A stretch of 64,000 nt of DNA, from positions 41,441 to 105,440 of the IMG/VR virus record IMGVR_UViG_3300037245_003487; one strand, written 5' to 3'. Under the pieces are notes generated by a model. That model was not told the origin of the DNA. It saw nothing but the letters and a program-made list of their open reading frames with translations, and searched no databases. The position numbers and the translations under genes were made by a program. Source of the DNA: a virus (Duplodnaviria > Heunggongvirae > Uroviricota > Caudoviricetes). Shown in pieces: positions 1,053-44,883 of this stretch (within the stretch, counting starts at the first letter, position 1; the number at the start of each line of letters is the position of its first letter).

Positions 1053-1053
1053 T

Positions 1054-12319: not shown

Positions 12320-12340
12320 ATATTCCTCCTTTGATAATGC

Positions 12341-12369
12341 AATATAATATAATAAAACATAAAAGTCAA
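12341..12369 (-). promoter_or_regulatory. sigma70-like promoter (TTGACT-N17-TATATT) for the 685-aa gene
   Basis: Minus-strand TTGACT, 17-nt spacer, TATATT, then AAGGAGG RBS and ATG at 12319. Confidence 0.45.
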
Positions 12370-12381
12370 ATTTATTTACAT

Positions 12382-12696: not shown

Positions 12697-12699
12697 ATT

Positions 12700-12981
12700 T
12701 TACTCCTTTACATGAATTCTAAATGCACCCAAGTACATTCTGTTAAAAGTTATAGAATCACTATTTTCATCCTGTTTACCAGAAATACCTCCATAACGAA
12801 CGTTGAAGCCACAGCTAAAATCCTTTCCTTCTACAGAAAAAAACATTGAATCTTGACCACTTGGCTTTAATGTCATATCGGTGATCTCGGTATCTATGAC
12901 TCCATATTCAAAATCCTGCATTTTACCACCAATCCACCTTTCCTTTTTCTTAACAAATTGTTCCCAAATTGATTCTCTCAT
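12700..12981 (-). CDS. hypothetical protein
   Basis: 93-aa ORF. Confidence 0.3.
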   Translation of the reverse strand: MRESIWEQFVKKKERWIGGKMQDFEYGVIDTEITDMTLKPSGQDSMFFSVEGKDFSCGFNVRYGGISGKQDENSDSITFNRMYLGAFRIHVKE

Positions 12982-13416
12982 TTAACACTCCTTTAAAATA
13001 TTTAATGTATATATATATTTTCTTATTCTCTCTAAGTCTCTTTGCTTTAAATTACTTGAATTTTTAATTCTATCAGGAAGTAAATTATGTCTTATATCCT
13101 GAATTTTAACGCACACAGCTATAGCGCTAGACATAACCCTTTTGATATAAACATCATAATTTTCACCCTTTCTTTTAGTCAAACAATCAATCGCAAATAT
13201 AACCGACTCACTTAATCCTAATTTTTCTTTTAAATAATCTAATGTAATATCAGTGTCTTCAACTACATCATGCAACACGCCAGCTATTTTATCATTATAA
13301 TCATCCAGATGCATCATAACCCATAATGGATGCAATATATATGGCTCACCTTGCAAATCCACTTGTCCTTTATGTGCATTAGATGCCAATACTATAGCAT
13401 TTTCAAGTCTGTTCAT
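12982..13416 (-). CDS. HD-domain (p)ppGpp hydrolase (small alarmone hydrolase, SpoT/Mesh1-like)
   Basis: HKGQ...GEPYILHPL...AGVLHDVVEDT signature of the RelA/SpoT HD hydrolase domain. Confidence 0.65.
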   Translation of the reverse strand: MNRLENAIVLASNAHKGQVDLQGEPYILHPLWVMMHLDDYNDKIAGVLHDVVEDTDITLDYLKEKLGLSESVIFAIDCLTKRKGENYDVYIKRVMSSAIAVCVKIQDIRHNLLPDRIKNSSNLKQRDLERIRKYIYTLNILKEC

Positions 13417-13901
13417 ATTTCACCCTCCTTTGGCACATTGTACCTTCTATATAAAATTTCATCATCTAATTCATCGTAAGTAAAAATTCTCTCTATATCA
13501 TCGTAACTATCATATACTTGATTACTTGTGCCATCATAAAACTCGCCATCAATATAAGCTATGGCATGATCGTTAGTAGTTACAACACATCCTTCATTGC
13601 CATGATATGTTTCTATAATTTCTAAAAATAATATAGATAGATCTTCACAGTCGCCTGTCCCTAGTGTCACAGTTTCTTTCCAAGACTGCCAATACTCATC
13701 TAAACCATGAACATCCTTATCTGTTTTATACTCTATATTATCAAATATCCACTCTAAGTACCTGCGATATGGCTGCTTAAAATCAGATATCTGATTCATA
13801 TCCTTAATAAATTTATAATACTTAGGATTAACATATACATACTCTGAATTTTTACATGAAAACATTAATATAATAATACACAGTAAGTATATATTTTTCA
13901 A
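13413..13901 (-). CDS. lipoprotein, possible transglutaminase-like cysteine peptidase fold
   Basis: Signal peptide with lipobox LMFSC; GDCEDLSILF...HAIAYIDGEFYDGT (Cys/His/Asp spacing). Confidence 0.4.
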   Translation of the reverse strand: MKNIYLLCIIILMFSCKNSEYVYVNPKYYKFIKDMNQISDFKQPYRRYLEWIFDNIEYKTDKDVHGLDEYWQSWKETVTLGTGDCEDLSILFLEIIETYHGNEGCVVTTNDHAIAYIDGEFYDGTSNQVYDSYDDIERIFTYDELDDEILYRRYNVPKEGEI

Positions 13902-14938
13902 TATAATTCACCTCTACGAAATCTCCTTTCTGATACAGAATCCCTTTTAATAGCATTTAAAAATGGATTTATAGAGAAATAAGGATTATCGTATTTTCTG
14001 ATTGACCAATGCAAATGCGTACCTAATGTTTTGCCTGTATCCCCTACGAGCCCTATCAATGTTTTATAAGTTACTTTAGTAAATCCAATTTTACCATTAT
14101 ACATTGTTTTCAATGGCACTTTAATCTCTGCCAAATGACAATAATTAATTCTAAATGTTTCCATTTTACCTGTGACTTCATTTTTCCTATGACAACGTAT
14201 CACAACTGTATTACCAAATATCTTATGATTATTATAAATACTAATTACATACCCAATTGCTGGAGCATAAACTGCTTTATTTTTCTTATTTACAATATCA
14301 ATTCCAGTATGAAGCTGAGTGAATATTATAATATTTTCTTTAACCTTGACATTATAACATCTACCCCATTCTGGAATATTAAGTACCTGCTTCCAGCTTC
14401 CAGTATCCATACCAAGTCCAGTAAGGAATTCATTTATATCATCAGTTCTATTCAACCAAATTGTTCTGGAATCATATTCACTTGTAATTACAGTATTTGG
14501 ATCAGGCTTACTAAGATCTTTTGGATCTCTAATTGGAAACTTGATCCAGTCATATCTCATTATATAATTACTAATCCCATGTTTCTTAGTATATTCAGTT
14601 AAGTACATCTCATCATCAAGTTTATCAAAAATGTTATCATTAATATCCGTGTTAGTGTCACCAGCAAGTAATTCAATACCAGAGATAATATTTGCTAACT
14701 CAGCATTAACATATTTAACTTCATTTTTAAACTTACTTATAAGAGCTGTTTTAATAGCCAGTTCTTTTTCAAGTTGAGCTTTTTCCTTAGCTAATTTCTC
14801 AGCCTTAGATCGTTCTTGCTCTTCAATTGCTCTTGTTAATGCTAAATCTAACTTGATCTTATCCTGCTTATCTTCGTAAAAGTAAACAGCTAAACCAGCA
14901 ATCATAAATAAAAGCAAGAAAAAACTAATCAATTTCAT
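13898..14938 (-). CDS. M23 family metallopeptidase with N-terminal TM anchor and coiled coil
   Basis: HTGIDI ... GDTGKTLGTHLHWSI (HxxxD and HxH motifs of LytM/lysostaphin family). Confidence 0.7.
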   Translation of the reverse strand: MKLISFFLLLFMIAGLAVYFYEDKQDKIKLDLALTRAIEEQERSKAEKLAKEKAQLEKELAIKTALISKFKNEVKYVNAELANIISGIELLAGDTNTDINDNIFDKLDDEMYLTEYTKKHGISNYIMRYDWIKFPIRDPKDLSKPDPNTVITSEYDSRTIWLNRTDDINEFLTGLGMDTGSWKQVLNIPEWGRCYNVKVKENIIIFTQLHTGIDIVNKKNKAVYAPAIGYVISIYNNHKIFGNTVVIRCHRKNEVTGKMETFRINYCHLAEIKVPLKTMYNGKIGFTKVTYKTLIGLVGDTGKTLGTHLHWSIRKYDNPYFSINPFLNAIKRDSVSERRFRRGELY

Positions 14939-23950: not shown

Positions 23951-23975
23951 ATTAAACTCCTTTATAAATTAAAAT

Positions 23976-24046
23976 TGCTCCCACCTGGAGTCGAACCAGA
24001 ATTCACAGATTAAAAATCTGTTACTTTACCATTAAGTCATGGGAAC
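23976..24046 (-). tRNA. tRNA-Lys (anticodon UUU)
   Basis: Hand-folded cloverleaf: acceptor GTTCCCA/TGGGAGC, D ACTT/AAGT, anticodon arm ACAGA-TTTTTAA-TCTGT, T TCTGG-TTCGACT-CCAGG. Confidence 0.8.
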
Positions 24047-24048
24047 AT

Positions 24049-24133
24049 TGCGCCATGGTGGAGTTGAACCACCCGAGCCAATTAAGACACCAAATTTACA
24101 GTCTGGACCGCTACCCCTACGGTATAATGACGC
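24049..24133 (-). tRNA. tRNA-Tyr (anticodon GUA), long variable arm
   Basis: 85 nt; acceptor GCGTCAT/ATGGCGC, anticodon arm CCAGA-CTGTAAA-TTTGG, T GGTGG-TTCAACT-CCACC. Confidence 0.7.
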
Positions 24134-24164
24134 GTAAAACGAGGTGAATTAACACCCCCTAAAA

Positions 24165-25163
24165 TTATTTACTTTCTGCGTTATTAATCACATCTGCTTT
24201 TTGAAGTGATTTCAATGAAACAGCATTAATTTGCTTGTAAGCATCATCAAGTTTTTTAGCAATTATAACAGCTTCTTTTTCAAGTTGAGCAATTCTATCA
24301 TCTTTCATTGTAACTGAATTATTTAAAACTTTAATATCAGCTTCATAACTAGCAGTAATGAATCTTTTAGCAGTTTCAACTTTTTTCTTAGTCAAACCAT
24401 CAATTCCTTCTTCCAATTTAGCTAATCTTACAGATTCTTTTTCAGCTTCTACAGTAAATTTAATTCTAAGCTCTTCAATCTCTGTAGTTTTTTTATCAGC
24501 TTCTTCAATTTTATCTGCAACTTGTTTTTCTTTCACTGCAATTCTTGCATCAACAACTTTTTCTTTACCTTTTAAGTTTTCATTAATTTGATTTTCAGTA
24601 TCTCTTTTATCAATCTTAAGATCATATTCCTGTTGCTCTTGAGTCCTTGCAAGATCTTCTTCATTGTCTGATTTTAACTTAGCTATAGTTGCAGTAGTTT
24701 CTTTTAACTTTGCATTATAGTTTTTAGTTAATTCAGTATCCATCTCAGAATACTTAGTTTTCAACTCTTTTGTATCAGTTGCATTGTCAAGTCTTACAGC
24801 CTTCTGTGCATCAATCAATCCAGCTAATGTTTCAGTCTCTTTTTTAACTCCATAAAGTTCTTCTAATTCAGCTTTCACTAATTCAATAGCAGTCTGAATA
24901 TTTTTGTACTCTTTTGAAGCAAATAATAAACCTGAATTTAGACCATCAAGCTCACTGATTAACTGATTTTTGATCTCATTAATCTGCTCTCCATAACCCT
25001 CAATTGTAGTCTCTACTTTACCTAAAATTGCTTTGTTTTCAGCATTCTTAGCATCTGCCACAGGATTGAATTTTCCTGCTTTAAGCTCTTTAATTTCTGT
25101 GATTTTAGTATCTAAGTAAGCTAAAATTTCCTTCTTAGTACTTTTCTCATTAATTTTCGCCAT
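24165..25163 (-). CDS. coiled-coil protein of unknown function
   Basis: 332 aa, Glu/Lys-rich heptad-like sequence throughout. Confidence 0.4.
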   Translation of the reverse strand: MAKINEKSTKKEILAYLDTKITEIKELKAGKFNPVADAKNAENKAILGKVETTIEGYGEQINEIKNQLISELDGLNSGLLFASKEYKNIQTAIELVKAELEELYGVKKETETLAGLIDAQKAVRLDNATDTKELKTKYSEMDTELTKNYNAKLKETTATIAKLKSDNEEDLARTQEQQEYDLKIDKRDTENQINENLKGKEKVVDARIAVKEKQVADKIEEADKKTTEIEELRIKFTVEAEKESVRLAKLEEGIDGLTKKKVETAKRFITASYEADIKVLNNSVTMKDDRIAQLEKEAVIIAKKLDDAYKQINAVSLKSLQKADVINNAESK

Positions 25164-25177
25164 TTACACTCCTTGTT

Positions 25178-25559
25178 TTATTTTGATTTAAAATTATATA
25201 TAGGCTTAACAAAACAATGAATATCAACAGTTTCACTTATTGCATTTATAATCATATCTTTATCTTTGTACGCTCCTTTTACTTCGTCTAACGTCTCTTT
25301 ACATAAAGAAGTAGTATAAATACCCTTTTCTTCCATTGATTTTCTTGCATCTTCTAAGCTTAATTCTTTTTTAGCTTTTGACCTGGACAAAACTCTACCA
25401 GCTCCATAATGACAATCAGGCATAATAGCAATATAAGATTTTCCAAATGCAGGATGATTAAGAAAACCATAAATTTGTTTCCTTGTTGCTTCATCTAAAT
25501 ATGAGTCATCTGGAAGCATAATGTTCGCAGAATTATACTGCGCTTTAATTGTAATCATT
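25178..25559 (-). CDS. RtcB N-terminal-domain-like protein (truncated relative to RtcB RNA ligase)
   Basis: LDEATRKQIYGFLNHPAFGKSYIAIMPDCHYGAGRV aligns with the RtcB N-terminal region (AVMPDVHLGKG). Only 127 aa; start set at MITIK with RBS AAGGAG. Confidence 0.4.
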
Positions 25560-25604
25560 TTATACTCCTTTCCTATCACTAATATCTGTTCTAATATAAT
25601 ATCC

Positions 25605-25907
25605 TTATCTACTAAAATCGTACTTCTTAACAATATCTTCAACGCAATGCATTACATCAAATAACATTTCCTGTTTTGTTGTTAGATTACCATCTGAAGA
25701 TGCTAAAAGCTTACCTAATCTTTCCTGAAGATTATTTTCTTTAGCTCTTATAATAGCTACTCTTTTAGCTTTTTGTTTATCCCATTGATCTAATGGATTA
25801 CATAAGCTATAACCAATTTGATCCTTAGATATAGCCACGACTACACCAACAGGCTTTCCACGACCTTTTTCATCAGCTTTCTTTTCCCTCAAATACTTTA
25901 TAACCAT
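25605..25907 (-). CDS. hypothetical protein
   Basis: 100-aa ORF. Confidence 0.3.
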   Translation of the reverse strand: MVIKYLREKKADEKGRGKPVGVVVAISKDQIGYSLCNPLDQWDKQKAKRVAIIRAKENNLQERLGKLLASSDGNLTTKQEMLFDVMHCVEDIVKKYDFSR

Positions 25908-25921
25908 ATTATTCTCCTTTA

Positions 25922-26080
25922 TTTAATAATTTATCATAAGCTTCTCTATCATTTTGATAAATCCAGTAAAGCCCAATAACTATCAATGCCTTTATAGGCT
26001 CATCACCTAAATCATCAACTATAATAGGCCATGATTCCTTAAAATTATCTGGAAATTTTTCTAATTTTTCAAACATATTC
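25922..26080 (-). CDS. hypothetical small protein
   Basis: about 52-aa ORF MFEKLEKFPDNFKESW... not in the supplied track. Confidence 0.2.
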
Positions 26081-26273
26081 AATCCTTTAATAAAAATACA
26101 ACCAAGGAATTTGCAGCCCTGGTTGTTTTTAGTTTAGTTTTTACTGAACTATAACAGGCATTTTCATTACGCTCTGATTTACTTCAGCCGATCTTGTTAC
26201 ATTAAGACATGAACGCTATAGTTTTTACCGTTGTTAATAGTCAACTTTCCAGACATCTGCATAATATCTGTAT

Positions 26274-26347
26274 TAGCTAGGGTGGGAATCGGACCCACAT
26301 TTGACTGCCTTATGAGAGCAGTGTGTTACCAGTACACTACCTAGCGA
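26274..26347 (-). tRNA. tRNA-Met (anticodon CAU; elongator-type or Ile2-type)
   Basis: D GTGT/ACAC, anticodon arm CTGCT-CTCATAA-GGCAG, T GTGGG-TCCGATT-CCCAC; C1-U72 mismatch. Confidence 0.65.
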
Positions 26348-26349
26348 CG

Positions 26350-26497
26350 TATTGCCAACAGTAGGACTTGAACCCACGAATGCCAACATACACAAGTTAT
26401 CAACTTATAAATGCTTGTTTAAATGCTGATGAAACATTCAATTCAAATAGGCAACCTCCAGTTTAATCTGGTGCTCTGCCACTGAGCTATATTGGCG
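26350..26497 (-). tRNA. tRNA-like gene with an insertion of about 70 nt (148 nt overall)
   Basis: Acceptor GCCAATA/TGTTGGC, D-arm GCTC-AGTGGCA-GAGC, T-arm GTGGG-TTCAAGT-CCTAC. No canonical anticodon arm; TGTTGGCA occurs twice flanking the T-arm. Confidence 0.35.
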
Positions 26498-26502
26498 TTA
26501 AA

Positions 26503-26970
26503 TTACTTCAATTCATCAAATAATACTACAGAATTCTCTAACACTTTCATTAACTGCTTCGTAATATTAAACTTCTTTGAATTAATCTCAATGGAAGTTT
26601 TAATATTACCATCATTATGTCTTTCACTGGCAGCTTTCCAATCACAAAACATTTCAATAATATCTATAATAGTCATATCATTAACACCGTTTTTAAAGTG
26701 ATTTGGATGGTGTCTATTATTTGCATAGTGATGATCGAGTGCTGGTTTCATTTCTTCCAGGAAGCCCTTGTATTCTTCGCTATTATACGTTGATTCAGCT
26801 AATCTTGGTGTATACTCAGCAAACACCTCTAATTCTGGACTTTCCAATTTACTATTATCGTGATTTAACCCCCTAGTAATTAACTGTTTACACACAAGCA
26901 TTAAATATTCATTAACTTTTTCCCTATGCTTCCTAGTGGATTCATTAGAGACTAATTCTTTCGTATTCAT
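26503..26970 (-). CDS. hypothetical protein
   Basis: Start moved to MNTKEL (RBS AGGAGAA); the longer ORF-track call would overlap tRNA-Glu. Confidence 0.4.
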   Translation of the reverse strand: MNTKELVSNESTRKHREKVNEYLMLVCKQLITRGLNHDNSKLESPELEVFAEYTPRLAESTYNSEEYKGFLEEMKPALDHHYANNRHHPNHFKNGVNDMTIIDIIEMFCDWKAASERHNDGNIKTSIEINSKKFNITKQLMKVLENSVVLFDELK

Positions 26971-26999
26971 AATTCTCCTACAAATATTATAAAAAATAT

Positions 27000-27070
27000 T
27001 AACGCTATGGGGAGTTGAACCCCGCTTGATGGGTCGAAAACCCACGATCCTACCGATAGATGATAGCGTC
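27000..27070 (-). tRNA. tRNA-Glu (anticodon UUC)
   Basis: Acceptor GACGCTA/TAGCGTT, D ATCT-ATCGGTA-GGAT, anticodon arm GTGGG-TTTTCGA-CCCAT, T (C)GGGG-TTCAACT-CCCC(A). Confidence 0.7.
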
Positions 27071-27124
27071 ATTCACACACTCTACCATAATTATTAATCA
27101 AAGTAAAGTATTTTTACGTTTATT

Positions 27125-27715
27125 TTACATATTTTCTAATAATTTATTCATTTTACTATCAATATCATCTTTTTTAATTCTATTATACTCTCTAATTTCC
27201 TTAAATCTATCAGTAACATAATTTCTAAACTGTTCAAACTGAAGTGGCTTTACAATAAAATATCTATAGCTAAAAGTTTGAATTTCAAAGCCATACCCCT
27301 CGTTCCAAATACAATATGTCTCACCTCCTATACTAAGGTAAAAATAATTCGAGCTACTATCTTCAAGACGTAATTTATCTTTATGTTTATTTAAAAATTC
27401 AATATCTATAAATTCAACACTAACAGCATCTCCATCTTTTATTATTTCTTTTTTAAGTTTAGCCAAATAAGCTTTATACTCTTTACTACCAACTTGTCTA
27501 AAAGTAGGTTTTGGTGTTATCACAGGCTTCATAGTCGGTTCAGGTGTAACATAAACAATAATAGTCTCAGGTCTATAAAATTCTGGTGTAACGTAAATAG
27601 TTATAACTTCTGGCTCTACAACTTCCTCTCTATAAGTCCCATTGCACTTAATAATAAAGAACGTACCAATAAACACTATAACTAGCACTATTACGTATTT
27701 CAATAAATCACTCAT
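27125..27715 (-). CDS. membrane-anchored protein with PE/PT-rich repeats
   Basis: N-terminal TM; repeated ...IYVTPEFYRPETIIVYVTPEPT... Confidence 0.35.
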   Translation of the reverse strand: MSDLLKYVIVLVIVFIGTFFIIKCNGTYREEVVEPEVITIYVTPEFYRPETIIVYVTPEPTMKPVITPKPTFRQVGSKEYKAYLAKLKKEIIKDGDAVSVEFIDIEFLNKHKDKLRLEDSSSNYFYLSIGGETYCIWNEGYGFEIQTFSYRYFIVKPLQFEQFRNYVTDRFKEIREYNRIKKDDIDSKMNKLLENM

Positions 27716-28140
27716 AATATCCTCTTTACTAGCTGACTTAAAAATTTACCATCATATTTATTAGGATGGTTATCTTTAAACCACATCATGATCTTACTAA
27801 AGTTATTTTGAAGTAAAACTAAATGACTAATCATGGTAATCATTTCCATTTCAGAAAGTTGTTCTGGAAGATATTGTTTAAGAATTTCTATCTCACAATT
27901 ACATGAATTAATACGAGCTTCGTAACTCTGGGGTTTTTCTTTTTTAAAAACATTTCTATTAATTTTTAAGTTATTAATATACTTCTTAACAATATCAACT
28001 ACTTGATATTCCATGATAACACCATTATTATCTTTCATGTGCTTTTGAGCATCACTCATGACACATTTAAGCAAATTACATTTAAACTTATCACCATTTT
28101 TCATAGCAAAATTAATATCTTGCCTTATCTTTTCGTACAT
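27712..28140 (-). CDS. GatB/YqeY domain protein
   Basis: MYEKIRQDINFAMKNGDK...YLPEQLSEMEMITMI pattern; start set at MYEK with RBS GGAGGAA (the longer ORF is mostly hydrophobic junk). Confidence 0.5.
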   Translation of the reverse strand: MYEKIRQDINFAMKNGDKFKCNLLKCVMSDAQKHMKDNNGVIMEYQVVDIVKKYINNLKINRNVFKKEKPQSYEARINSCNCEIEILKQYLPEQLSEMEMITMISHLVLLQNNFSKIMMWFKDNHPNKYDGKFLSQLVKRIL

Positions 28141-28141
28141 A

Positions 28142-28381
28142 TTAATATTCCTCCAATTCTTTAATATACATAACTTTTCCACCCCTTGACTCGAATATAT
28201 TATTATCATTACAATCAAAAAATCTATAATTAATACATGTGGTAAAAATACAGCTATCCCATTTTTCATAATAACAAGCATCGATACTTATTTTACTTCC
28301 ATTAATAAACATAATCTCGTATGTTTTTCCAAAAGACGATAAACAAATAAACAAAAACAAAACAATTAAAATTTTCTTCAT
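28142..28381 (-). CDS. small secreted Cys-rich protein
   Basis: Signal peptide MKKILIVLFLFICLSSFG. Confidence 0.35.
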   Translation of the reverse strand: MKKILIVLFLFICLSSFGKTYEIMFINGSKISIDACYYEKWDSCIFTTCINYRFFDCNDNNIFESRGGKVMYIKELEEY

Positions 28382-28384
28382 AAC

Positions 28385-28591
28385 TTACTCCTCATCTTGA
28401 TCTACCAAGTATTCCTTTAAATCATCATGTGAAATTTGACTTAAATTAAAATCACAAAAATAAAGATCTCCGTTGGTAATTCCTCTAGCTAATACATAAT
28501 CATTACCCACAACCTCTATGCGCTTATCTTCATATGAATCTCTACCAAAATAACCACCACAATATCCATATAAAATTGAACCTACATACAT
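28385..28591 (-). CDS. hypothetical protein
   Basis: 68-aa ORF. Confidence 0.3.
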   Translation of the reverse strand: MYVGSILYGYCGGYFGRDSYEDKRIEVVGNDYVLARGITNGDLYFCDFNLSQISHDDLKEYLVDQDEE

Positions 28592-28601
28592 ATTTTACTC
28601 C

Positions 28602-28835
28602 TTAAAATTCACCCATAACCGCTTTATCATTCATGTATTTAAAAAACACTTTATCATCTTCTGTTTCTGGTCCAAAAAAACCAGAAAATTTAACATCTGA
28701 ATTATTTTTACGAAAATCAATAATAGCTTGAAACATCCTAACTTTTGCTTCTAATTTTTTAATGCTATAATTTCTATAATCCCATCCACAAGTACAAATA
28801 TGATTCCAGCAATGACTACAATCACTTAATGACAT
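28602..28835 (-). CDS. hypothetical protein
   Basis: 77-aa ORF. Confidence 0.3.
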   Translation of the reverse strand: MSLSDCSHCWNHICTCGWDYRNYSIKKLEAKVRMFQAIIDFRKNNSDVKFSGFFGPETEDDKVFFKYMNDKAVMGEF

Positions 28836-28838
28836 ACT

Positions 28839-29210
28839 TTACTCCTTTTCATGTGGATATGGCACAAATCTAAAAGCAGAAAACTTACTAACACTATATA
28901 CTTCTAAATCTGGATTAACCCCATCTCTATTCATTAAATAGCAAGCTGTTGAATTCATAAGACATCCTCCGCCTCTATTACATAAATAACCACCAAACAT
29001 ATATATTGGCCCACCAAGATCTTCTACAAGATTATGTTTATCGGAAATTACAAATACATTTCCAGTTTCACCAATAATTACATCACCAATACCAGGCTTC
29101 CATTTTTCTTGAATATTTTTATTGAAAATACAATCAATCATGTATTGCTTACTCAAGCCTTTAAAATTATTAGGCAAATGAAATTCCAAAGCCTCTTTAT
29201 TAAATTTCAT
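28839..29210 (-). CDS. hypothetical protein
   Basis: 123-aa ORF. Confidence 0.35.
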   Translation of the reverse strand: MKFNKEALEFHLPNNFKGLSKQYMIDCIFNKNIQEKWKPGIGDVIIGETGNVFVISDKHNLVEDLGGPIYMFGGYLCNRGGGCLMNSTACYLMNRDGVNPDLEVYSVSKFSAFRFVPYPHEKE

Positions 29211-29212
29211 AT

Positions 29213-29590
29213 TTACTCCTTAGAAAACTCATCGAGCTTCTTTCTAACATCAACCATTACTTCGCAAACATCAATGCCTTTTCCATAACTACTTATAGCT
29301 GTTTTTAATAACTCTCTCGATATTATACCAAGTTGACATGCTCTTAAAATCCCTATAGTTTTAGTTAAATCCTCACCACAAACATCTTTATATAACATCC
29401 AAATATCAGCTCCGTATATCTCGCATGTGTCCATCATTAACACAGCTCCCGTTCCACCCATTGCACCTTGTGGATCTATAGACTCTGCTTTTTCAATAAT
29501 CTGCATTAATACAGAAATTGCACCTGGATTTCCATCACTCATTTTTAACAATGCTTCCATTGTTGAATCATTTCCGTTAATTTTACTCAC
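29213..29590 (-). CDS. hypothetical protein
   Basis: 125-aa ORF. Confidence 0.35.
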   Translation of the reverse strand: MSKINGNDSTMEALLKMSDGNPGAISVLMQIIEKAESIDPQGAMGGTGAVLMMDTCEIYGADIWMLYKDVCGEDLTKTIGILRACQLGIISRELLKTAISSYGKGIDVCEVMVDVRKKLDEFSKE

Positions 29591-29593
29591 ATT

Positions 29594-29755
29594 TTACTCC
29601 TTTATTAAATCATAATCCTCAATATAAAATACATCAGTATCACCGCTTAAAATATATATCAATTGACCTAATCTTAATTGTGGTTGCTTAAGCCATAAAT
29701 TATATAACTTCCAGATCATTTCATATTTTTGACTTTCTTTAATTGCTCTTTTCAT
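29594..29755 (-). CDS. hypothetical small protein
   Basis: Start moved to MKRAIKE (RBS AAGGAG); longer ORF-track version overlaps tRNA-Gly. Confidence 0.3.
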   Translation of the reverse strand: MKRAIKESQKYEMIWKLYNLWLKQPQLRLGQLIYILSGDTDVFYIEDYDLIKE

Positions 29756-29772
29756 AAATACTCCTTTAACAT

Positions 29773-29844
29773 AGCAGGTAGACGGAATCGAACCGACATC
29801 CAATGGATGGAAACCACTTATAATAACCATTATACTATACCTGC
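29773..29844 (-). tRNA. tRNA-Gly (anticodon UCC)
   Basis: Acceptor GCAGGTA/TACCTGC, anticodon arm AGTGG-TTTCCAT-CCATT, T GTCGG-TTCGATT-CCGTC (one mismatch). Confidence 0.6.
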
Positions 29845-29935
29845 GAATTAAGCAAGTCCAGCATAAGACCATCCTATTATTAAAGTACTTTCATTTAACA
29901 TATAAATGGATCGTTTACATACCTGTAACTTGCAT

Positions 29936-30006
29936 TATGACAAAGTAGATTCGAACTACTGCATCCCAGATTTTCAGTCTGGTACCCTACCACTAGGTGA
30001 TTGCCA
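29936..30006 (-). tRNA. tRNA-Phe-like (anticodon GAA), imperfect acceptor and D stems
   Basis: Perfect anticodon arm CCAGA-CTGAAAA-TCTGG and T-arm AGTAG-TTCGAAT-CTACT; acceptor and D stems do not pair canonically. Confidence 0.4.
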
Positions 30007-30011
30007 CATAT

Positions 30012-30036
30012 CAGGCATTAGGTGATTTGAACACCT
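30012..30036 (-). ncRNA. tRNA 3'-half-like element (T-arm AGGTG-TTCAAAT-CACCT + acceptor 3' strand), preceded by A10 run
   Basis: D-arm-like 5' element GGCGTAT-TA-GCTT..AAGC lies about 90 nt upstream (30111-30140). Could be one tRNA-like gene with a large insertion. Confidence 0.3.
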
Positions 30037-30489
30037 TTTTTTTTACAACTTAGGTATGCGCTTTTTTACATATGATATTACAAGCAACAGTGACTAAGAC
30101 TTACATAAAACGCTTTATACCAATATTAAGCTAATACGCCTATAAAATTAAGTAAACATGAAGGCGATGCGATCCATGGTTGGAATTTAACAGCTTACCT
30201 GCATTCACTTCCCTCATGACCATTTACTTGAGGTGCTTACTTAATTGATTGATTGTTGTTGTTTCAAATGCTCGCATTAGGAATCACCTCTCGCTTAACA
30301 TTAAGATAGTTTTATGACTTCTTAACGGTCCTACTAATTAGATTTCCGTTTTCTTTGAAAAACGATAAACAGGTATCTATCTGGGTCCACAGTCATGGAA
30401 TCGTACTATTTCTACTCACAGCTTGCCAGCCTTGTAGGAGCTATCATATCCATGCTTTATACGTACGCAGCTACCGCACGATGCTTAAT

Positions 30490-30559
30490 TTGCATTGACT
30501 GGAATCGAACCAGCTACTATACCAGCGAACCGATACTTGCTACCAAACAATCCAATGCA
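30490..30559 (-). tRNA. tRNA-like gene (anticodon arm unresolved)
   Basis: Perfect 7-bp acceptor TGCATTG/CAATGCA, T-arm GCTGG-TTCGATT-CCAGT, D-loop TTGGTAG; anticodon stem not foldable by hand. Confidence 0.35.
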
Positions 30560-30567
30560 CCCAATAA

Positions 30568-30801
30568 TTAACTTTTCATTTTATCAGCCAAAGCATTAAG
30601 AATTTCTAATTCATCAATACCTTTATCGACTAATTTTTTCCAAAACCCAAAAATCTTACCTACATCTCCAGCTTTAGCATCTAATGCACGACCAGCTTCA
30701 GCAACTAATTCCTTTTGCTCTCCAGTTCTTTCTCTTTTCTCATCTTCCAACTCATTCCAAGAAGTAAAAAGAACCTTAACTTGTTTTAACTTATCACTCA
30801 T
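30568..30801 (-). CDS. hypothetical protein
   Basis: 77-aa ORF. Confidence 0.35.
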   Translation of the reverse strand: MSDKLKQVKVLFTSWNELEDEKRERTGEQKELVAEAGRALDAKAGDVGKIFGFWKKLVDKGIDELEILNALADKMKS

Positions 30802-30911
30802 TATTAACTCCTTTTTTGCACGATAACTTTACTCATGATAACGTGCGAAATATAAGTTATAATAACACAATTAAATAATATTGCAATATATTTTACACTT
30901 ACATTACAATA

Positions 30912-31070
30912 TTTATTTTATCGTATCACAATTGTTAAACATTAATCCTATGTAGCTCTTAACAGTACATATTCTACCACATTCACATTTAGTATTAAGA
31001 TTATGATCTTTTTTACCAGCAACATCCTTTTTACAATCAGGACACCAGAATATTTTATTTTTTCTACCCA
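30912..31070 (-). CDS. small zinc-ribbon protein
   Basis: 52 aa, CPDCKK...CECGRIC; not in the supplied track. Confidence 0.25.
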
Positions 31071-31336
31071 TCAATCACTCCATCATAATAATCTTGCGCT
31101 TTCTTTTTAAGCTCTTCAGCGTTTTCTAAGTAATATTCAGAATTATATTTACGTTTCTTATTGATATTATCCTGGTAATATTCTTTTGAACTTTCCTTAG
31201 ACTTTTTATTACGACACTTCTTACATGTAGTTCGTAGGGACTTACCATTCTTGTGAAAGAATTTAGGATCATGTGGTAATATATCTCCACAATCACCTTT
31301 ACATGTAATATACTTTTGATTACCAATCTTTTCCAT
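31064..31336 (-). CDS. Zn-finger/Lys-rich protein homologous to the N-terminal domain of the HNH paralogs (no HNH domain)
   Basis: CKGDCGD...CKKCRNKKSKESSKEYYQDNINKKRKYNSEYY resembles N-termini of 1245-2054 and 47155-47865. Confidence 0.4.
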   Translation of the reverse strand: MEKIGNQKYITCKGDCGDILPHDPKFFHKNGKSLRTTCKKCRNKKSKESSKEYYQDNINKKRKYNSEYYLENAEELKKKAQDYYDGVIDG

Positions 31337-31441
31337 ATTGTTCCTTAATTTAAAAATAAAAATGCAGTAGAATTATGGCTATACCTTGCCTAAGGTGGAT
31401 TTATGCATCTAGCGACCACGCACAAAACTACTGCATTAAAT

Positions 31442-31514
31442 TAACGGCAGGTGGATTTGAACCACCGATCACGATATCAAAAACCGTTGCATTTGGCCAG
31501 ACTATGCTATACCG
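31442..31514 (-). tRNA. tRNA-Gln (anticodon UUG)
   Basis: Acceptor AGCGGTA/TGCCGTT (two GU), D GCAT/ATGC, anticodon arm ACGGT-TTTTGAT-ATCGT, T GGTGG-TTCAAAT-CCACC. Confidence 0.7.
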
Positions 31515-31523
31515 CTATAATTA

Positions 31524-33377: not shown

Positions 33378-33459
33378 ATTGTCCTCTCCTTTAAAACTTA
33401 TGTAAAACAGTTATACTATATCTATTTTAATAAGTCAAACTTTTTTACAGTTAAGTTAC

Positions 33460-37206: not shown

Positions 37207-37262
37207 TCTTAATTTATATCATAATTAAAAAACAATGTCAATATGTTTTACAATCTCCTTAC
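37207..37262 (-). promoter_or_regulatory. promoter TTGACA-N17-TATAAA with conserved upstream element GTAAGGAGATTGTAAAACATA; near-leaderless start of nuclease gene
   Basis: -10 ends 6 nt before ATG at 37206; 26-nt element identical to copy at 38056-38081. Confidence 0.45.
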
Positions 37263-37298: not shown

Positions 37299-37324
37299 AA
37301 AAAAGAGACTACAGAGGTAGTCTC
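37299..37324 (-). terminator. rho-independent terminator (stem GAGACTAC/GTAGTCTC + T6)
   Basis: 8-bp perfect stem, 4-nt loop, T-run on minus strand downstream of gene 37348-38007. Confidence 0.5.
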
Positions 37325-38013: not shown

Positions 38014-38081
38014 TCCTTTGATATTTAATTACTTATAACATATATATTTCAATGAGTCAATATGTTTTACAATCTCCTTAC
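38014..38081 (-). promoter_or_regulatory. promoter TTGACT-N17-TATAAG with the same conserved upstream element
   Basis: Second copy of GTAAGGAGATTGTAAAACATATTGAC, followed by leader with AAGGAGG RBS. Confidence 0.45.
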
Positions 38082-39758
38082 GTTATCTCTAATTTCCTGC
38101 AATGTAAAGTCTTTAAGTAATTTACCATCTTTAAATACCGTTTTTAAAATACCAGTCTTCTCAACTTCTGGAGTAACTTCTTCATGTAGTTTAAAGTTTT
38201 CATCAACCATAAGCAATCCTTTTGCTGATTTTTTAAGGCCATCATCGGTTACAGGATCTTTGAAGATATTACGAGCCTCACCATTAACTACTCCATATGT
38301 AGCCTTCATTGCAAAACCCAGCGAGTCCCTTGTTAAAAAATTGTAGGAAAATGACCCGATCCCTAAAACAACATTTGTTGACGTAAACCCTTTAGATTCA
38401 AGCCTTTTACAGATTTCCTCACATCTCTTCATTGTTATTGCATCGCCATAAATAGCTCCAATATGGGTATCAAGCTGCTTAAAGCCTTTACTATTGACTT
38501 CGCCACCAAATGTATTCCATAGAAGCTCAATAACGCCTAAATCTTCAGGTCTAACCTCTAATCTTTCATAACTAACTGATTTTATTCCATCAACAACATA
38601 ATGATCATTATCATTCATATCATGCATTTTGCCTATTTCAGCTATTACTACAACTCTATAGATTTCAGATCCTATTTTACAAGTATCATTATATTCATCA
38701 CAATAACTATCGTCATCACAGTTTTCTACAAAGAAATCCCATGCAACATCGGTATAATAAGATTTTATATCATTAGTAGATGTTAAATATTTATCGCATT
38801 GAGTAAATACTTTTCCACATATTATATCTACAGGATCTCCGCTATCAGGTCTAATTACAACCTTACCATCTCTTGCCATAACTTCATTTTTAAGTTTTGG
38901 TAAATAATCAGTTAATACTTTCCATAAATCCCATGTATCAGATACAAGTGATATTATTCCAGATGGATATACTTTTGTGATTAGTCTTTTAAAAAGACCA
39001 AATTCGTCATTATCACCATTTAATGAAACAACAGAATGCTCAGTCGCACCAACGCTTCCGCCCACTAACTCTTTATCACAATTAGCACCATAATATTCTT
39101 CCATAAACGGTATTGCAGGTATCGTATCAGTTCCAGTAAATGATGTTAAATGACCTGACATTGAAGCGAGTTCTAATCCACCCATTCCCCTAAATGAAAA
39201 ATCATGTCCTTGCCAATCTACAAACTCTGGTATATCACTTGTTTTTTCTGCATAACCATCAAGTATTTCTCTATATTTAGCAGCAATAGTAGCGGTCGTC
39301 ATCGGAGACCAAATAATACATGACATTATACTTTCAATATAATTTGTCACCCAAAAAAATTCAGGTAAAGTATTCTTAATTGTAATACATGGAATTCTCA
39401 TTGGGCATTTAGTTCCTTCTTCCATAGCTTTAATCTCAAGTGGTAAATAACCAAGATCATGTAAAGCCTCGATATGATCCATTTTCACTACATCCGGACC
39501 TAATGAATTATCAAGTATTCTTTTGTATTCACCAACAACTTGCTCTTTAGGTAAATCAAAAAATCCTTCATTAAATTGATTAATCAGATATTCTTTAATA
39601 AAATACTGTAATCCAAATACGACTACTTCATTAATCCCTTCAATCCTTGAGCCTCTTGGTGTCCAATTTGAATAGACCATCTCAGTTCCTTCTGGATACT
39701 GATAAATATGACCTGTCTTGTAAAAATCTGCTAACAGCAGTGGGTTAATTCTTCTCAT
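38067..39758 (-). CDS. nicotinamide phosphoribosyltransferase family protein (NadV/NAMPT-like; candidate Namat)
   Basis: N-terminal LLADFYKTGHIYQYP signature of NAMPT; 563 aa. Confidence 0.7.
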   Translation of the reverse strand: MRRINPLLLADFYKTGHIYQYPEGTEMVYSNWTPRGSRIEGINEVVVFGLQYFIKEYLINQFNEGFFDLPKEQVVGEYKRILDNSLGPDVVKMDHIEALHDLGYLPLEIKAMEEGTKCPMRIPCITIKNTLPEFFWVTNYIESIMSCIIWSPMTTATIAAKYREILDGYAEKTSDIPEFVDWQGHDFSFRGMGGLELASMSGHLTSFTGTDTIPAIPFMEEYYGANCDKELVGGSVGATEHSVVSLNGDNDEFGLFKRLITKVYPSGIISLVSDTWDLWKVLTDYLPKLKNEVMARDGKVVIRPDSGDPVDIICGKVFTQCDKYLTSTNDIKSYYTDVAWDFFVENCDDDSYCDEYNDTCKIGSEIYRVVVIAEIGKMHDMNDNDHYVVDGIKSVSYERLEVRPEDLGVIELLWNTFGGEVNSKGFKQLDTHIGAIYGDAITMKRCEEICKRLESKGFTSTNVVLGIGSFSYNFLTRDSLGFAMKATYGVVNGEARNIFKDPVTDDGLKKSAKGLLMVDENFKLHEEVTPEVEKTGILKTVFKDGKLLKDFTLQEIRDNVRRL

Positions 39759-40570
39759 AAATCCTCCTTTATTAATTTAATTTGTCTATATTTATATACT
39801 TCTAATATTTTTTCATCCCATAAAGTAACACTATATATACTGCTTATCAATCCATCAAATACACCTAATCCTTTACTAAAAATACCATGAGATACAAATA
39901 ACCTTACTGTCTCAGCACCACGATCTTTAAGTATTTTAGCTATCTCAATAAAGGTCCTTCCTCCATCACAAATATCATCTATGATTAAACAATCTTTGCC
40001 TTTAAAATTATCACATTTTATTTCAGTATGAATTATTTCACCTGTATGTGGGTTTCTAATTTTACTACATCCAGCAACTGCCAAATCAAGTTTATTACCT
40101 ATTGCCCATATTTTCTTTCTAGCACCTTCATCTGGTGAAATCAAAATTGTGTTGCCATGAATTGGAACTTGCTTAATTAAAGGCATTATATCAATTTCAT
40201 AGCACTTATTTAATAACGCTGTACTTACTGGGGAATGATTATCAAGAGTGCGTACTACGTTATAATTCTGACTATTAATTAAATCACAAAATACTTTAAT
40301 ACTTAATGATTCACCTGGAACCATAACACGATCTTGTCTTGCATATGGCACGTAAGGAAGAATGAGTCTCATAAAACCTGGGCCTATGCGCCTTAGTGCA
40401 TCAGTAACTAATAACAACTTCATTATATCATTTGAATTTCGTATAAAAGCTTCAATAGTTATAACTGGATCAATTTCACCTTTAATTTTTACATGCTCTT
40501 CGCCACCATTAAAAGTAAAAAATTCACATTCTATTTTTCTATAACCAAAACCGTAAACTTTAATCATCAT
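39755..40570 (-). CDS. ribose-phosphate pyrophosphokinase family protein (Prs-like; candidate Adps)
   Basis: LPYVPYARQDR and PRPP-binding LIIDDICDGGRT; 4-nt overlap with the NAMPT-like gene. Confidence 0.65.
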   Translation of the reverse strand: MMIKVYGFGYRKIECEFFTFNGGEEHVKIKGEIDPVITIEAFIRNSNDIMKLLLVTDALRRIGPGFMRLILPYVPYARQDRVMVPGESLSIKVFCDLINSQNYNVVRTLDNHSPVSTALLNKCYEIDIMPLIKQVPIHGNTILISPDEGARKKIWAIGNKLDLAVAGCSKIRNPHTGEIIHTEIKCDNFKGKDCLIIDDICDGGRTFIEIAKILKDRGAETVRLFVSHGIFSKGLGVFDGLISSIYSVTLWDEKILEVYKYRQIKLIKEDL

Positions 40571-40880
40571 TCACTCCTTTATTATTTTCATTAAAATAAT
40601 CTTGTTCTTTTGACTCATACTCAGTAACATATCGCTTACCAAATTTTATTACAAACACACAAAAACAACAATCAATTCCATCTAATGTTAATTTATCAAA
40701 TGCATTAAGACCATCTTTTTTGCTTTTAAAATAAGCATGAGAACTAAATCCTTGATCGCATCCATTATGTTGACTTTTTTTAATATCAGTAGTCCAGTCC
40801 TCGCATTTATAACACCACCAATGTCTATCCCATCTTACAATTTCATAGCTAACTGAGTAAATTCTCCTTAACCATTTCAT
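40560..40880 (-). CDS. hypothetical Cys/Trp-rich protein
   Basis: 106-aa ORF. Confidence 0.3.
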   Translation of the reverse strand: MKWLRRIYSVSYEIVRWDRHWWCYKCEDWTTDIKKSQHNGCDQGFSSHAYFKSKKDGLNAFDKLTLDGIDCCFCVFVIKFGKRYVTEYESKEQDYFNENNKGVNDD

Positions 40881-40939
40881 AATTACACTCCTTTAAGTTA
40901 ATTAGTTATATCATGACATTTAATTAATGTCAAATTTAT

Positions 40940-43589: not shown

Positions 43590-44864
43590 TTAGTAATATT
43601 TTTTAACGATAAATTCCAAATCTTTATCGTTAAAATCTTTGTATTTAACGTTATTTTTATCTAGCTCATTTTTTAAATAATCAGCTATTTTTAAATTTAA
43701 TATATTTTTTATATGTGGTATGGATATTAAAGTTATTCCATTTTCTATACATAATCGCTTTTTCCTTTCATCTCGCTCTTGTTGATCAATAAAGCCTTGT
43801 TCGGTTCTATGAAACCAGGGCGAAAATTCATAATGTTGCAATCCATTATGTTCAAAACCTAATTTTAATTCTTCATTGTATATATCTATCTCTAATCTAC
43901 CCCATCCTATTGGAACTATTTTATTAAATTTCTTATTAAAAATTAATTCGATAATTTCTTTACAACACGCTTCGCTTTTATAAAAATTATTAGTATAGCA
44001 CGTAGGACACCAGTGACCATTTTGTATTGGTGTCCAAGCAATCTTCCATTGATGCCCAAATTCACATTTCCAAATATACTTCGTTTTATTGTTTATATAT
44101 TTAATTGATAAACATTCCCCATTTTTACCTTGTGCAAATTGTTGAAGGTCTTCAATAATATATCCCCTTTTTTTTTCACCGTTTTTTCTATAAGCACATT
44201 TCCTACACCATTTCCCACTTTTTACACTTCCAGGAGTTGCTTCCCATGTATGTCCTTCTAAACATTGCCACTCTAATTTTGTACTGTTATTTATATATTT
44301 ATCAGATAAACATAATCCACATCTGTATTCAGCCAATTTTTTCATTTCTTCAATTGTTAATAACAATCTATTTGCACATTTAGGACACCATTCCCCTCTT
44401 TTGATATTTTCCCATCTCGCTCCCCAGACATAACCGCACTGGCACTTCCATTTATATTTCGTACCCATACTTATATATTTTTCTGATAAACATTTACCAT
44501 CTTTCTTAATTGCAAATTCTTGTAAATCATTAATTGTATGAACTCTATTTCCTATTGCATTTTTAATAAAAGCACATTTCGGACACCAATGACCTCTTCT
44601 TATATCATTCCATCTTGCTTCCCAGATATGCCCCTCAGAACATATCCATTTATATTTTGTTTTTGTATTATTATATTTAACAGATAGACAATCTCCTCTT
44701 TTCTTTTTTGATTCATTTTTTAAATCATCAATTATATAATAATCCTTTTTTTCTTTTACTTTTTTATTCCCACTTTTAGCAGCATGGCTTTTACAACAAT
44801 TTTTAGCATTTTTATTCTTAGTCTTAAATTCCTCTCCGCACCACTCACATTCTTTAATTTCCAT
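43590..44864 (-). CDS. five tandem zinc-ribbon repeats plus C-terminal Vsr/PD-(D/E)xK-like domain (putative homing/nicking endonuclease)
   Basis: 5x (GH.WEA.W..I..G.WCPKCA); C-terminus WGRLEIDIY...FEHNGLQH...ENGITLISIP. Start set at MEIKECEW (RBS AAGGAGAGG) rather than TTG at 44882. Confidence 0.45.
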   Translation of the reverse strand: MEIKECEWCGEEFKTKNKNAKNCCKSHAAKSGNKKVKEKKDYYIIDDLKNESKKKRGDCLSVKYNNTKTKYKWICSEGHIWEARWNDIRRGHWCPKCAFIKNAIGNRVHTINDLQEFAIKKDGKCLSEKYISMGTKYKWKCQCGYVWGARWENIKRGEWCPKCANRLLLTIEEMKKLAEYRCGLCLSDKYINNSTKLEWQCLEGHTWEATPGSVKSGKWCRKCAYRKNGEKKRGYIIEDLQQFAQGKNGECLSIKYINNKTKYIWKCEFGHQWKIAWTPIQNGHWCPTCYTNNFYKSEACCKEIIELIFNKKFNKIVPIGWGRLEIDIYNEELKLGFEHNGLQHYEFSPWFHRTEQGFIDQQERDERKKRLCIENGITLISIPHIKNILNLKIADYLKNELDKNNVKYKDFNDKDLEFIVKKYY

Positions 44865-44883
44865 ACCTCTCCTTATAATCAAA

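Follow-up and report, generated by a model that had tools for sequence, protein, structure and literature searches.

Sequence evidence for a probable NARP1 NAD+ reconstitution module in an uncultured myovirus

A candidate NARP1 gene pair

A 64,000-nucleotide stretch of a virus of the Caudoviricetes (Duplodnaviria; Heunggongvirae; Uroviricota), IMG/VR record IMGVR_UViG_3300037245_003487, positions 41,441 to 105,440, was analysed and is henceforth referred to as the window. It encodes two adjacent proteins, one resembling ribose-phosphate pyrophosphokinase (Prs) and the other nicotinamide phosphoribosyltransferase (NAMPT). Judged from the two protein sequences, the pair is very probably a NAD+ reconstitution pathway 1 (NARP1) module carried by an uncultured myovirus of ~122 kb, and we put the probability of this reading at roughly 0.85. 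An identical protein pair is present on a 122.6-kb metagenomic contig, where it is annotated just as "ribose-phosphate pyrophosphokinase" and "nicotinamide phosphoribosyltransferase"; the analysis replaces these names with a NARP1 module in an uncultured myovirus. NARP1 is already known and is common, occurring in roughly 4% of sequenced phages, and the window pair adds a member to it, not a concept.

In NARP1, the phage "Prs" (Adps) pyrophosphorylates ADP-ribose (ADPR), and the phage "Nampt" (Namat) joins the pyrophosphorylated product (ADPR-PP) to nicotinamide. Both enzymes fall into clades of their own, apart from cellular Prs and the Nmnat-associated Nampt of NARP2 (Osterman et al., bioRxiv 10.1101/2024.02.11.579819). 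The selectivity clamp of Namat comprises the SCH motif GS-X-phi-X-phi-X-phi-TRD, in which X is aromatic, and the SCL loop, which bears Arg, Lys or Tyr (PMC12774641). The hallmarks of Adps are a PP loop repurposed for the ATP donor, the catalytic Lys185 on a beta-hairpin, the acceptor residues and the loss of alpha11-12 (PMC13586617), and ICP1 Adps was shown by liquid chromatography-mass spectrometry to make ADPR-PP. These residue-level rules (the Namat clamp, the Adps PP loop and the C-terminal loss) can classify such pairs from sequence alone. The window pair displays every published NARP1 feature that can be read at the sequence level. A first-pass annotation of the window had proposed the NARP1 architecture of a Prs homolog and a NAMPT homolog, and the residues, hidden Markov model (HMM) scores and clades described below are all of the NARP1 type.

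The two open reading frames (ORFs), adps and namat, are co-oriented on the minus strand, and the namat ATG overlaps the adps TGA by 4 nt (ATGA). Both ORFs and their overlap lie where the first-pass annotation had placed them, and the peptides it quoted (LLADFYKTGHIYQYP, LPYVPYARQDR, DDICDGGRT and CDKYLTST...CDDDSYCDEYNDTCKIG) were all recovered in the translations. The NAMPT-like protein was matched by PF04095/PF18127 (Pfam), NF006629 (NCBIfam, 2.3e-160) and phrog_448 (PHROG, 1.4e-190), and the Prs-like protein by PF13793/PF00156/PF14572, TIGR01251 (1.4e-41) and phrog_619 (1.5e-76), respectively. Both family assignments are far beyond chance. The same gene pairing was found in SPbetaL1, ICP1, Tsamsa, wV8, LP-066, B55, MW202524, the phage-like locus L021 and Cellulophaga.

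The NAMPT-like protein

Among PDB sequences, the window protein scored 591 bits with the Namat crystal structures 9w5x/9w5w and ~225 bits with mammalian NAMPT. It is 57.9% identical to SPbetaL1 Namat and 52.9% identical to ICP1 Namat; identity to the NARP2-type Nampts of Vibrio phage K491 and Klebsiella phage KP1 is 30%. A profile comparison, a check proposed in the first-pass annotation, pointed to NARP1 for both members of the pair. The NAMPT-like protein scored 719 bits on a Namat HMM from which it and its close relatives had been excluded, against 202 bits on a NARP2-type Nampt HMM, and the Prs-like protein scored 182 bits on an Adps HMM against 89 bits on a Prs HMM. In a neighbour-joining tree, the Namat clade holding the window protein received 100% bootstrap support relative to a small outgroup of two NARP2-type sequences. 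A full-length AlphaFold model, for which the alignment contained Namat homologs only, had a confidence (pLDDT) of 91.4, and its best structural match was 9w5x (TM 0.94).

The clamp residues are listed in Table 1. In the SCH motif the positions phi1, phi2 and phi3 are occupied by Ser, Asn and Leu, respectively. The motif was present in all of the 120 nearest database homologs, and NARP2-type proteins have GMGGGLLQ..(T/D)RD at the same site. Nineteen of the 20 NAD+-contact residues of SPbetaL1 Namat are identical in the window protein, the remaining one being a conservative replacement (Y396 to F474). The Nampt-like catalytic core is also intact, with F187, R190, D211, R303, D305 and H241 corresponding to F189, R192, D215, R306, D308 and the catalytic His of SPbetaL1. 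The identification of the NAMPT-like protein as a Namat, and not a canonical NadV, is supported by these sequence comparisons.

The Prs-like protein

The Prs-like protein is 35-40% identical to ICP1 Adps and 25-30% identical to E. coli Prs. Its PP loop is identical to that of Felixounavirus wV8, a member of the Bas63 genus, and the ICP1 loop reads DDICDGAASF; C201, D202, G203 and the lid residue F207 of the window loop match ICP1. The canonical Prs loop of E. coli, human and B. subtilis is DDM(I/A)DT(G/C/A)GT(L/I), the human and B. subtilis sequences used being 100% identical to 8dbc_A and 1dkr_A. Neither the DTGGT ribose-5-phosphate loop of canonical Prs nor its flexible-loop motif is present in the window protein. 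Residues K170, H112, D147, D198, D199, D202, R78 and F20 correspond to ICP1 K185, H121, D161, D212, D213, D216, R87 and F18. The hairpin signature K-x-R-x-x-x-TG-x-I is found in most Namat-linked homologs, including those of ICP1, SPbetaL1 and wV8, and is absent from Prs.

The C-terminal alpha11-12 module is missing. The window protein has 271 aa versus 315-318 aa, its alignment stops ~35 residues short of the Prs C-terminus, and the LAEAIRR...S(V/I)S motif of that terminus is absent. All of the Prs equivalog cut-offs in NCBIfam were missed, the best equivalog (NF002095) giving 126 bits against a cut-off of 296, and the subfamily Prs model NF002320 gave 113 bits against a cut-off of 297. In a neighbour-joining tree with an outgroup of three Prs sequences, two of them checked against the PDB, the split between Adps and Prs had 89% bootstrap support, and the window protein fell within a 100% clade with the ICP1 and Pakpunavirus Adps proteins. 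These results support the designation of the Prs-like protein as an Adps. The first-pass annotation had counted as contrary to its proposal a Prs-like protein with all ribose-5-phosphate-specific residues and only normal phosphoribosyl pyrophosphate (PRPP) synthetase activity, or a NAMPT homolog clustering with canonical NadV together with an NMNAT gene elsewhere in the genome; the protein found here has lost the DTGGT loop and the C-terminus of Prs, and the NAMPT homolog lies outside the cluster of Nampts that prefer PRPP.

Proposed pathway and biological role

From homology to characterised enzymes we infer both enzyme activities and the substrate preference. Adps would hold ADPR in the acceptor groove of Prs, where F20 and R78 contact the adenine and D198/D199 the distal ribose, and would bind ATP at the remodelled PP loop (D202-F207). 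With the aid of K170 on the beta-hairpin, the beta,gamma-diphosphate would then pass to the 1''-OH of the ribose, which yields ADPR-PP and AMP. In the predicted Namat dimer, nicotinamide would be stacked between F187 and Y13' with participation of D211, the ribose would be held by R303/D305, and the adenine of ADPR-PP would be clamped between F470/F474 of the SCH motif and R38' of the SCL loop. Namat would join nicotinamide and ADPR-PP to form NAD+ and pyrophosphate (PPi), so that the predicted net reaction is ADPR + nicotinamide + ATP -> NAD+ + AMP + PPi. By analogy with characterised phages, the pair likely has an anti-defence role, in which NAD+ would be restored after cleavage by host NADase effectors, e.g. 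Thoeris, DSR, SIR2-HerA and SEFIR.

Components of other NAD+ pathways were sought in the window by Pfam scanning of 55 ORFs (all those of at least 150 aa except one in the tail module, plus 10 of 120-150 aa). No NMNAT was detected among them, and a six-frame scan of the window gave no GxFxPxHxGH motif, in agreement with the first-pass annotation, which had reported no NMNAT in the window. Neither a PF01467-type match nor an HxGH motif was found in the 64 kb plus ~14 kb of flanks from other contigs. Macro, Nudix, RyR, PnuC and NadR domains were likewise absent from the scanned window ORFs and the ~14-kb flanks, and AAA_28 had no match among the scanned window ORFs. For the four proteins encoded around the pair (orf106, DnaB, orf219 and the PDDEXK exonuclease), hmmscan gave no Macro match (PF14519, PF01661, PF20016); HHpred, with its higher sensitivity, was the tool of the original study. 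These absences point to a plain NARP1 and not to NARP1-AP, NARP2 or NARP3. Because no Macro-domain phosphatase was found, the module should not rescue NAD+ from the ADPR-1''-phosphate made by aRES.

Several points weigh against the assignment to NARP1 or limit its reach. The Leu at phi3 of the SCH motif, a position usually taken by Asn or Val, is unique among the 120 nearest homologs, and ICP1 F92 of Adps is replaced by Met83 in the window, as it is by Met in the Felixounavirus and Cellulophaga homologs. The structure 9ke8, which is named NadV, was crystallised with nicotinamide mononucleotide (NMN) and probably originates from Haemophilus ducreyi (as read from "Hd"), matches window Namat at 430 bits; similarity alone can therefore not decide the substrate, and the argument is carried by the clamp residues. 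In vitro, Namat enzymes still make NMN from PRPP (PMC12774641), and window Namat is therefore likely to have some classical Nampt activity as well. Among the closest homologs is an NrtR-regulated operon on the Cellulophaga chromosome, so the pathway serves housekeeping recycling too. The NMNAT negative covers 64 kb plus ~14 kb of a ~122-kb genome, of which ~45 kb lies outside. Finally, the activities and phenotype proposed for the pair rest entirely on homology.

One alternative retains the NARP1 biochemistry and changes its purpose: the pair would serve general NAD+ homeostasis during infection, for example by ADPR recycling, and not a dedicated counter-defence. The housekeeping NrtR-Adps-Namat operon beside rpsP/rimM in the Cellulophaga chromosome agrees with such a role, as do the de-repression of NrtR by ADPR (PMC2330246), the location of the pair in a replication/nucleotide-metabolism module with ribonucleotide reductase (RNR), SSB and DnaB, and the several NAD(P)-dependent sugar-pathway enzymes that the phage encodes. 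Free ADPR is, however, scarce in uninfected, defence-free cells, and NARP1 phages cause no rise in NAD+ without a defence system; moreover, the great majority of NARP1 loci belong to phages, and the pathway gives protection from five NADase systems (bioRxiv 10.1101/2024.02.11.579819). No phage NAD+-cleaving enzyme was found in the scans of window ORFs, which likewise tells against a recycling role, and we regard this alternative as improbable.

Slightly less credit is due to classical salvage, in which the Prs-like protein would make PRPP, the NAMPT-like protein would make NMN, and NadD, NadM or NadR of the host would complete NAD+. Operons of prs and nadV have historically been read in this way (PMC2330246), and the retained NMN synthesis of Namat enzymes and the closeness of 9ke8 noted above are compatible with it. 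The Prs-like protein also passes one Prs cut-off, that of the broad subfamily TIGR01251 (142 bits against 113). Against these points stand the aromatic SCH clamp and the SCL Arg, where PRPP-preferring phage Nampts have GMGGGLLQ, and the combined absence from the Prs-like protein of the DTGGT loop, the flexible-loop motif and the C-terminal module. The Adps HMM score is double the Prs HMM score, and every Prs equivalog score falls far under its cut-off. Classical salvage is thus a poor explanation of the pair, for which NARP1 is the preferred assignment.

The domain inserted in Namat

The first-pass annotation had described a Cys/Asp-rich insertion of about 80 aa that is not typical of NAMPT. 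The insertion is real: ~85 aa stand in place of ~10 residues of the SPbetaL1 Namat structure sequence, flanked by the short helix behind the catalytic RPDSG strand and by the next helix of the barrel. In the full-length model it forms an H-E-E-E fold, with a helix at residues 329-346 and long antiparallel strands at 355-362, 365-379 and 385-400. Its pLDDT was 83-94 in that model and 84.5 when the domain was modelled alone, with the same topology. From the topology of the barrel we infer that it projects from the catalytic face.

The earlier description has to be refined in two respects. The enrichment in Cys is peculiar to the window sequence, and the cysteines are not conserved: of the four in the insert, the Cys of CKIG alone recurs widely, and other Namat-embedded copies lack most of them, so a metal-binding Cys cluster was rejected. 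The insertion is also not unique to window Namat, the same loop being filled in Tsamsa-like, crAss-like, Felixounavirus (the Bas63 genus), Listeria P100-like and Pakpunavirus Namats. Since the loop is commonly occupied in Adps-linked homologs, an insertion here is atypical for NAMPT but not for Namat. The HMM made from the free-standing proteins described below gave no match to the inserts of the other lineages (Felixounavirus etc.), and hhalign of the window-type domain against them gave a probability of 6% (E = 0.006).

An exhaustive phmmer search with the insert alone (1.84 billion representatives) returned 14 proteins, of which four are Namat-like and contain the same insert; the others are mostly free-standing proteins of 123-162 aa. 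With a profile search the free-standing family grew to 182 members, mostly of 127-135 aa, from Paenibacillus and Clostridium genomes and large viral contigs, and it had no Pfam or PHROG match. The members lie there in replication modules and early regions of phages, e.g. directly after a family-A DNA polymerase. An HMM built from free-standing members only matched window Namat with 59 bits (Table 1). The domain is acidic in both settings (isoelectric point 4.24 for the window insert; median 4.43 for the free-standing family). Neither the PDB nor BFVD yielded a convincing structural or sequence relative.

Namat-like proteins whose identity has dropped to 39-52% still contain the same domain, which argues that it is functional. 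We would guess that it serves docking or regulation from the catalytic face of the barrel, as an accessory module that does not take over the core chemistry. A more specific proposal, which we consider rather unlikely, is a portable phage module that gives Namat a second function; for example, it could dock to Adps so that the labile ADPR-PP is channelled, or bind a host NADase effector or a ligand derived from ADPR. If that were true, Namat would be bifunctional in counter-defence, and the free-standing proteins would make up an anti-defence or NAD-related family not yet described; any activity of the domain itself would add a new accessory layer to NAD+-centred counter-defence. The one new lead offered by the window is the Namat loop after the RPDSG strand, an insertion hotspot that here holds a domain of an uncharacterised acidic phage family.

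There is next to no chance that the insertion has disabled Namat, leaving a gene that is decaying or repurposed: the domain does break the loop directly after the RPDSG strand and its G+C content (0.278) is below that of the rest of namat (0.345), but the frame is intact, conservation extends to all 20 ligand-contact positions, the model shows the insert as a separate, confident domain on a core that superposes on 9w5x, and inserts are likewise retained in the diverged Namat-like proteins and, in the same loop, in the Adps-linked homologs of the Bas63 genus.

Two metagenomic proteins with the inserted domain stand out. P0241 (469 aa) carries the insert most similar to that of the window (45% identity); by eye, its ~57 N-terminal residues are Adps-like and are followed by Namat from "WQGHDFS" onward, which could reflect a fusion, a deletion or an artefact of assembly. 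P0242, encoded on a 4113-bp Logan contig of SRR27598060, is Namat-like with a deviant SCH motif, GSYLYGGNVTRD. Its neighbours are a nucleoside 2-deoxyribosyltransferase-like gene and an AAA_28 gene (NadR-type kinase domain family), with an Adps fragment two genes upstream, and the locus may be an extended NAD-related operon.

Gene organization and expression signals

Coordinates of the gene pair, its motifs and the other features are collected in Table 1.

Table 1 Features of the NARP1-type gene pair and of the window. Positions are those of the 64,000-nucleotide window.
Feature	Position	Strand	Remarks
adps, Prs-like ORF, 271 aa	39755..40570	-	gene caller starts at second ATG (270 aa); ribosome-binding site AAAGGAGT at 40573-40580
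namat, NAMPT-like ORF, 563 aa	38067..39758	-	ribosome-binding site AAAGGAGG at 39763-39770, ahead of the ATGA overlap
Namat SCH clamp motif GSFSYNFLTRD, residues 468-478	38325..38357	-	F470, F474 are the adenine-stacking aromatics (consensus PMC12774641)
Namat SCL clamp G36-S37-R38	39645..39653	-	R38 aligns with SPbetaL1 Arg40, adenine-stacking (PMC12774641)
Inserted acidic alpha+beta domain of Namat, residues ~316-405	38544..38813	-	HMM match 322-401
Adps PP loop DDICDGGRTF, residues 198-207	39950..39979	-	ATP-donor site in ICP1 Adps (PMC13586617)
orf106, first cistron, 106 aa, Cys-rich	40560..40880	-	overlaps adps start by 11 nt; ribosome-binding site AAAGGAGT at 40887-40894
orf219, downstream, 219 aa	37348..38007	-	PF04055 (radical-SAM) 22.4 bits, below 29.5-bit cut-off
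Sigma-70-type promoter-like element TTGACA-N17-TATAA, upstream of orf106	40906..40933	-	motif scan; putative promoter
Second promoter-like copy, between namat stop and orf219	38033..38060	-	motif scan
Further promoter-like copies	37214-37241, 33411-33438	-	motif scan
Terminator-like hairpin and T-run after orf219	37305..37324	-	consensus scan only
Nonulosonic-acid pathway	486-9829		continues on a Logan contig (see text)
HNH/NUMOD4 homing-endonuclease-like gene, free-standing	8134-8652	-	in sugar cluster
Class II-type RNR, 1088 aa	19489-22755	-	LAGLIDADG intein, roughly residues 305-591
Seven tRNA genes	23975-31517		among small ORFs
RtcB-like ORF, 154 aa	25178-25642	-	profile 347-425 of 426
HNH homing-endonuclease-like gene, free-standing	43590-44882	-	in replication module; CapR-homology and treble-clef zinc-finger domains

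The motif TTGACW-N17-TATAA occurs four times in the window, in every case on the coding strand and between genes, against a chance expectation of 0.43 copies. One copy stands upstream of orf106 and another just after namat, which suggests an orf106-adps-namat transcript, and the upstream element is its probable start. The three genes would thus be co-transcribed from a sigma-70-type promoter inside the replication module, with translational coupling.

No match to orf106 was found in Pfam, NCBIfam or PHROG, and no homolog lies beside the NARP1 pairs of Cellulophaga lytica, the phage-like locus L021 or the SRR27598060 contig that encodes P0242; orf106 is thus probably not a conserved NARP1 component. 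The product of orf219 lacks the canonical CxxxCxxC of radical-SAM proteins and has CGHYCFEK. It had no PHROG match and no homolog adjoining other NARP1 loci, and is probably not part of the pathway.

Comparison with related systems

The NARP1 of Bacillus phage SPbetaL1 (Adps WIT26982; Namat WIT26983, structures 9w5x/9w5w) shares with the window the adps-to-namat order and the SCH motif/SCL Arg type. Unlike window Namat, SPbetaL1 Namat (491 aa) has no insertion; it does not bind Adps. SPbetaL1 Adps is of a Firmicute-phage subtype with the PP loop DDLSSFGGT and ~30% identity to window Adps. The Adps of Vibrio phage ICP1 (gp228; structures and kinetics in PMC13586617) belongs to the same subtype as window Adps, with a DDICDG.. 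PP loop and without the C-terminal module; the two differ in the loop tail (GAAS versus GGRT) and at F92 (Met in the window). ICP1 Namat (gp229) does not have the insertion of the window protein. In Felixounavirus wV8 (gp135/gp136), which shares the Adps PP loop, Namat has the SCH motif and an insert in the same loop and is 42% identical to window Namat.

The Adps and Namat core is also common to NARP1-AP (Adps-Adpp-Namat, e.g. Vibrio phage Gary; bioRxiv 10.64898/2026.01.28.702374), which possesses a Macro-domain phosphatase, whereas hmmscan found none within two genes of the window pair or elsewhere in the window. NARP2 (Nmnat and a KVP40-type Nampt, which prefers PRPP; represented here by K491 and KP1 Nampt) shares the NAMPT fold and the catalytic F, D, R and His; unlike the window, the K491 and KP1 loci have GMGGGLLQ instead of the aromatic clamp and no adjoining Adps. 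NARP3 consists of a PnuC-like transporter and a NadR-like bifunctional enzyme, neither of which was found among the window ORFs scanned.

Bacteria possess the same kind of pair as NARP1 or nrtR-prs-nadV loci (Paenibacillus foliorum pfNARP1, PMC12774641; Shewanella, Acinetobacter and Cytophaga, PMC2330246). The nearest insertion-free relatives of window Namat are 66-71% identical to it and include chromosomal proteins of Cellulophaga and other Bacteroidota. The closest of named source is the Namat-like protein of Cellulophaga lytica (66%), whose Adps-like partner is 42% identical to window Adps; order and motifs are the same. The Cellulophaga pair is chromosomal, preceded by NrtR and housekeeping, whereas the window pair lies in a phage replication module behind a putative phage promoter. 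Its locus (CP064870.1, 6376-9449) encodes NrtR (Nudix and WHD_NrtR), an Adps-like protein of 280 aa with the Adps-type PP loop DDICDGGGT and a Namat-like protein of 482 aa with the SCH motif, beside rpsP-rimM. By its sequence features, this operon is a bacterial NARP1-like ADPR recycler under an ADPR-responsive NrtR-family regulator. NrtR-regulated prs-nadV operons, de-repressed by ADPR, were described in 2008, when the dedicated Prs paralog was unexplained (PMC2330246), and bacterial NARP1 is active (PMC12774641). The biochemistry is therefore not exclusively anti-defence, and the role proposed for the window pair is taken from the phage literature.

Further observations were made at other phage loci. 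In Pectobacterium phage DU_PP_I (MF979560.1, 136508-138872), the Namat homolog consists of two coding-sequence pieces around an HNH endonuclease, which suggests a gene interrupted by a homing endonuclease or an intron. In Pseudomonas phage vB_PaeM_B55, a small ORF separates adps and namat, and a Macro-domain protein (4392-4871 of the locus) two genes downstream of Namat fits NARP1-AP. Kolpuevirus was considered as a case of Namat without Adps, which was rejected when Adps was found downstream of Namat.

Phage genome context

All genes of the window lie on one strand. They identify a myovirus with a Mu-like baseplate and sheath, DnaB, a replisome organiser, SSB, a RecE-like exonuclease, a class II RNR with an intein, Dam and seven tRNAs. 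The gene pair lies inside the replication module, as in L021, its closest phage-like relative. No relative at the DNA level was found among 50,697 phage records, and the tail sheath is ~37% identical to those of Mu-like phages. A Bacteroidota host was considered because of the Cellulophaga-like Namat; the strong AGGAGG/AAAGGAG(G/T) ribosome-binding sites and the TTGACA/TATAAT-type promoter-like motif argue against it.

Mapping of a GNAT gene puts window position 64000 beyond the start of contig SRR11832402_6319 (122,431 bp), so the 122,431-bp and 122,610-bp assemblies are circular permutations of each other. This suggests that the phage genome is circularly permuted or terminally redundant.

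A nonulosonic-acid (pseudaminic/legionaminic-like) pathway begins in the window and continues at 11473-14181 of the Logan contig SRR11832402_6319. Its genes encode a GNAT, a PseB-like dehydratase, NeuB, a DegT aminotransferase, a GFO oxidoreductase and a CMP-sugar cytidylyltransferase; a 902-aa Maf/MptE-like glycosyltransferase lies just beyond the window. The cluster is broken by an RNA ligase and the HNH/NUMOD4 endonuclease. The RNR is assigned to the class II type by its barrel and TSCPD domains, and the tRNA genes are those for Lys, Tyr, Met, Glu, Gly, Phe and Gln. In a 154-aa ORF, the match to RtcB is confined to the 80 C-terminal residues of the latter, and the ORF may be a split or degraded RNA ligase.

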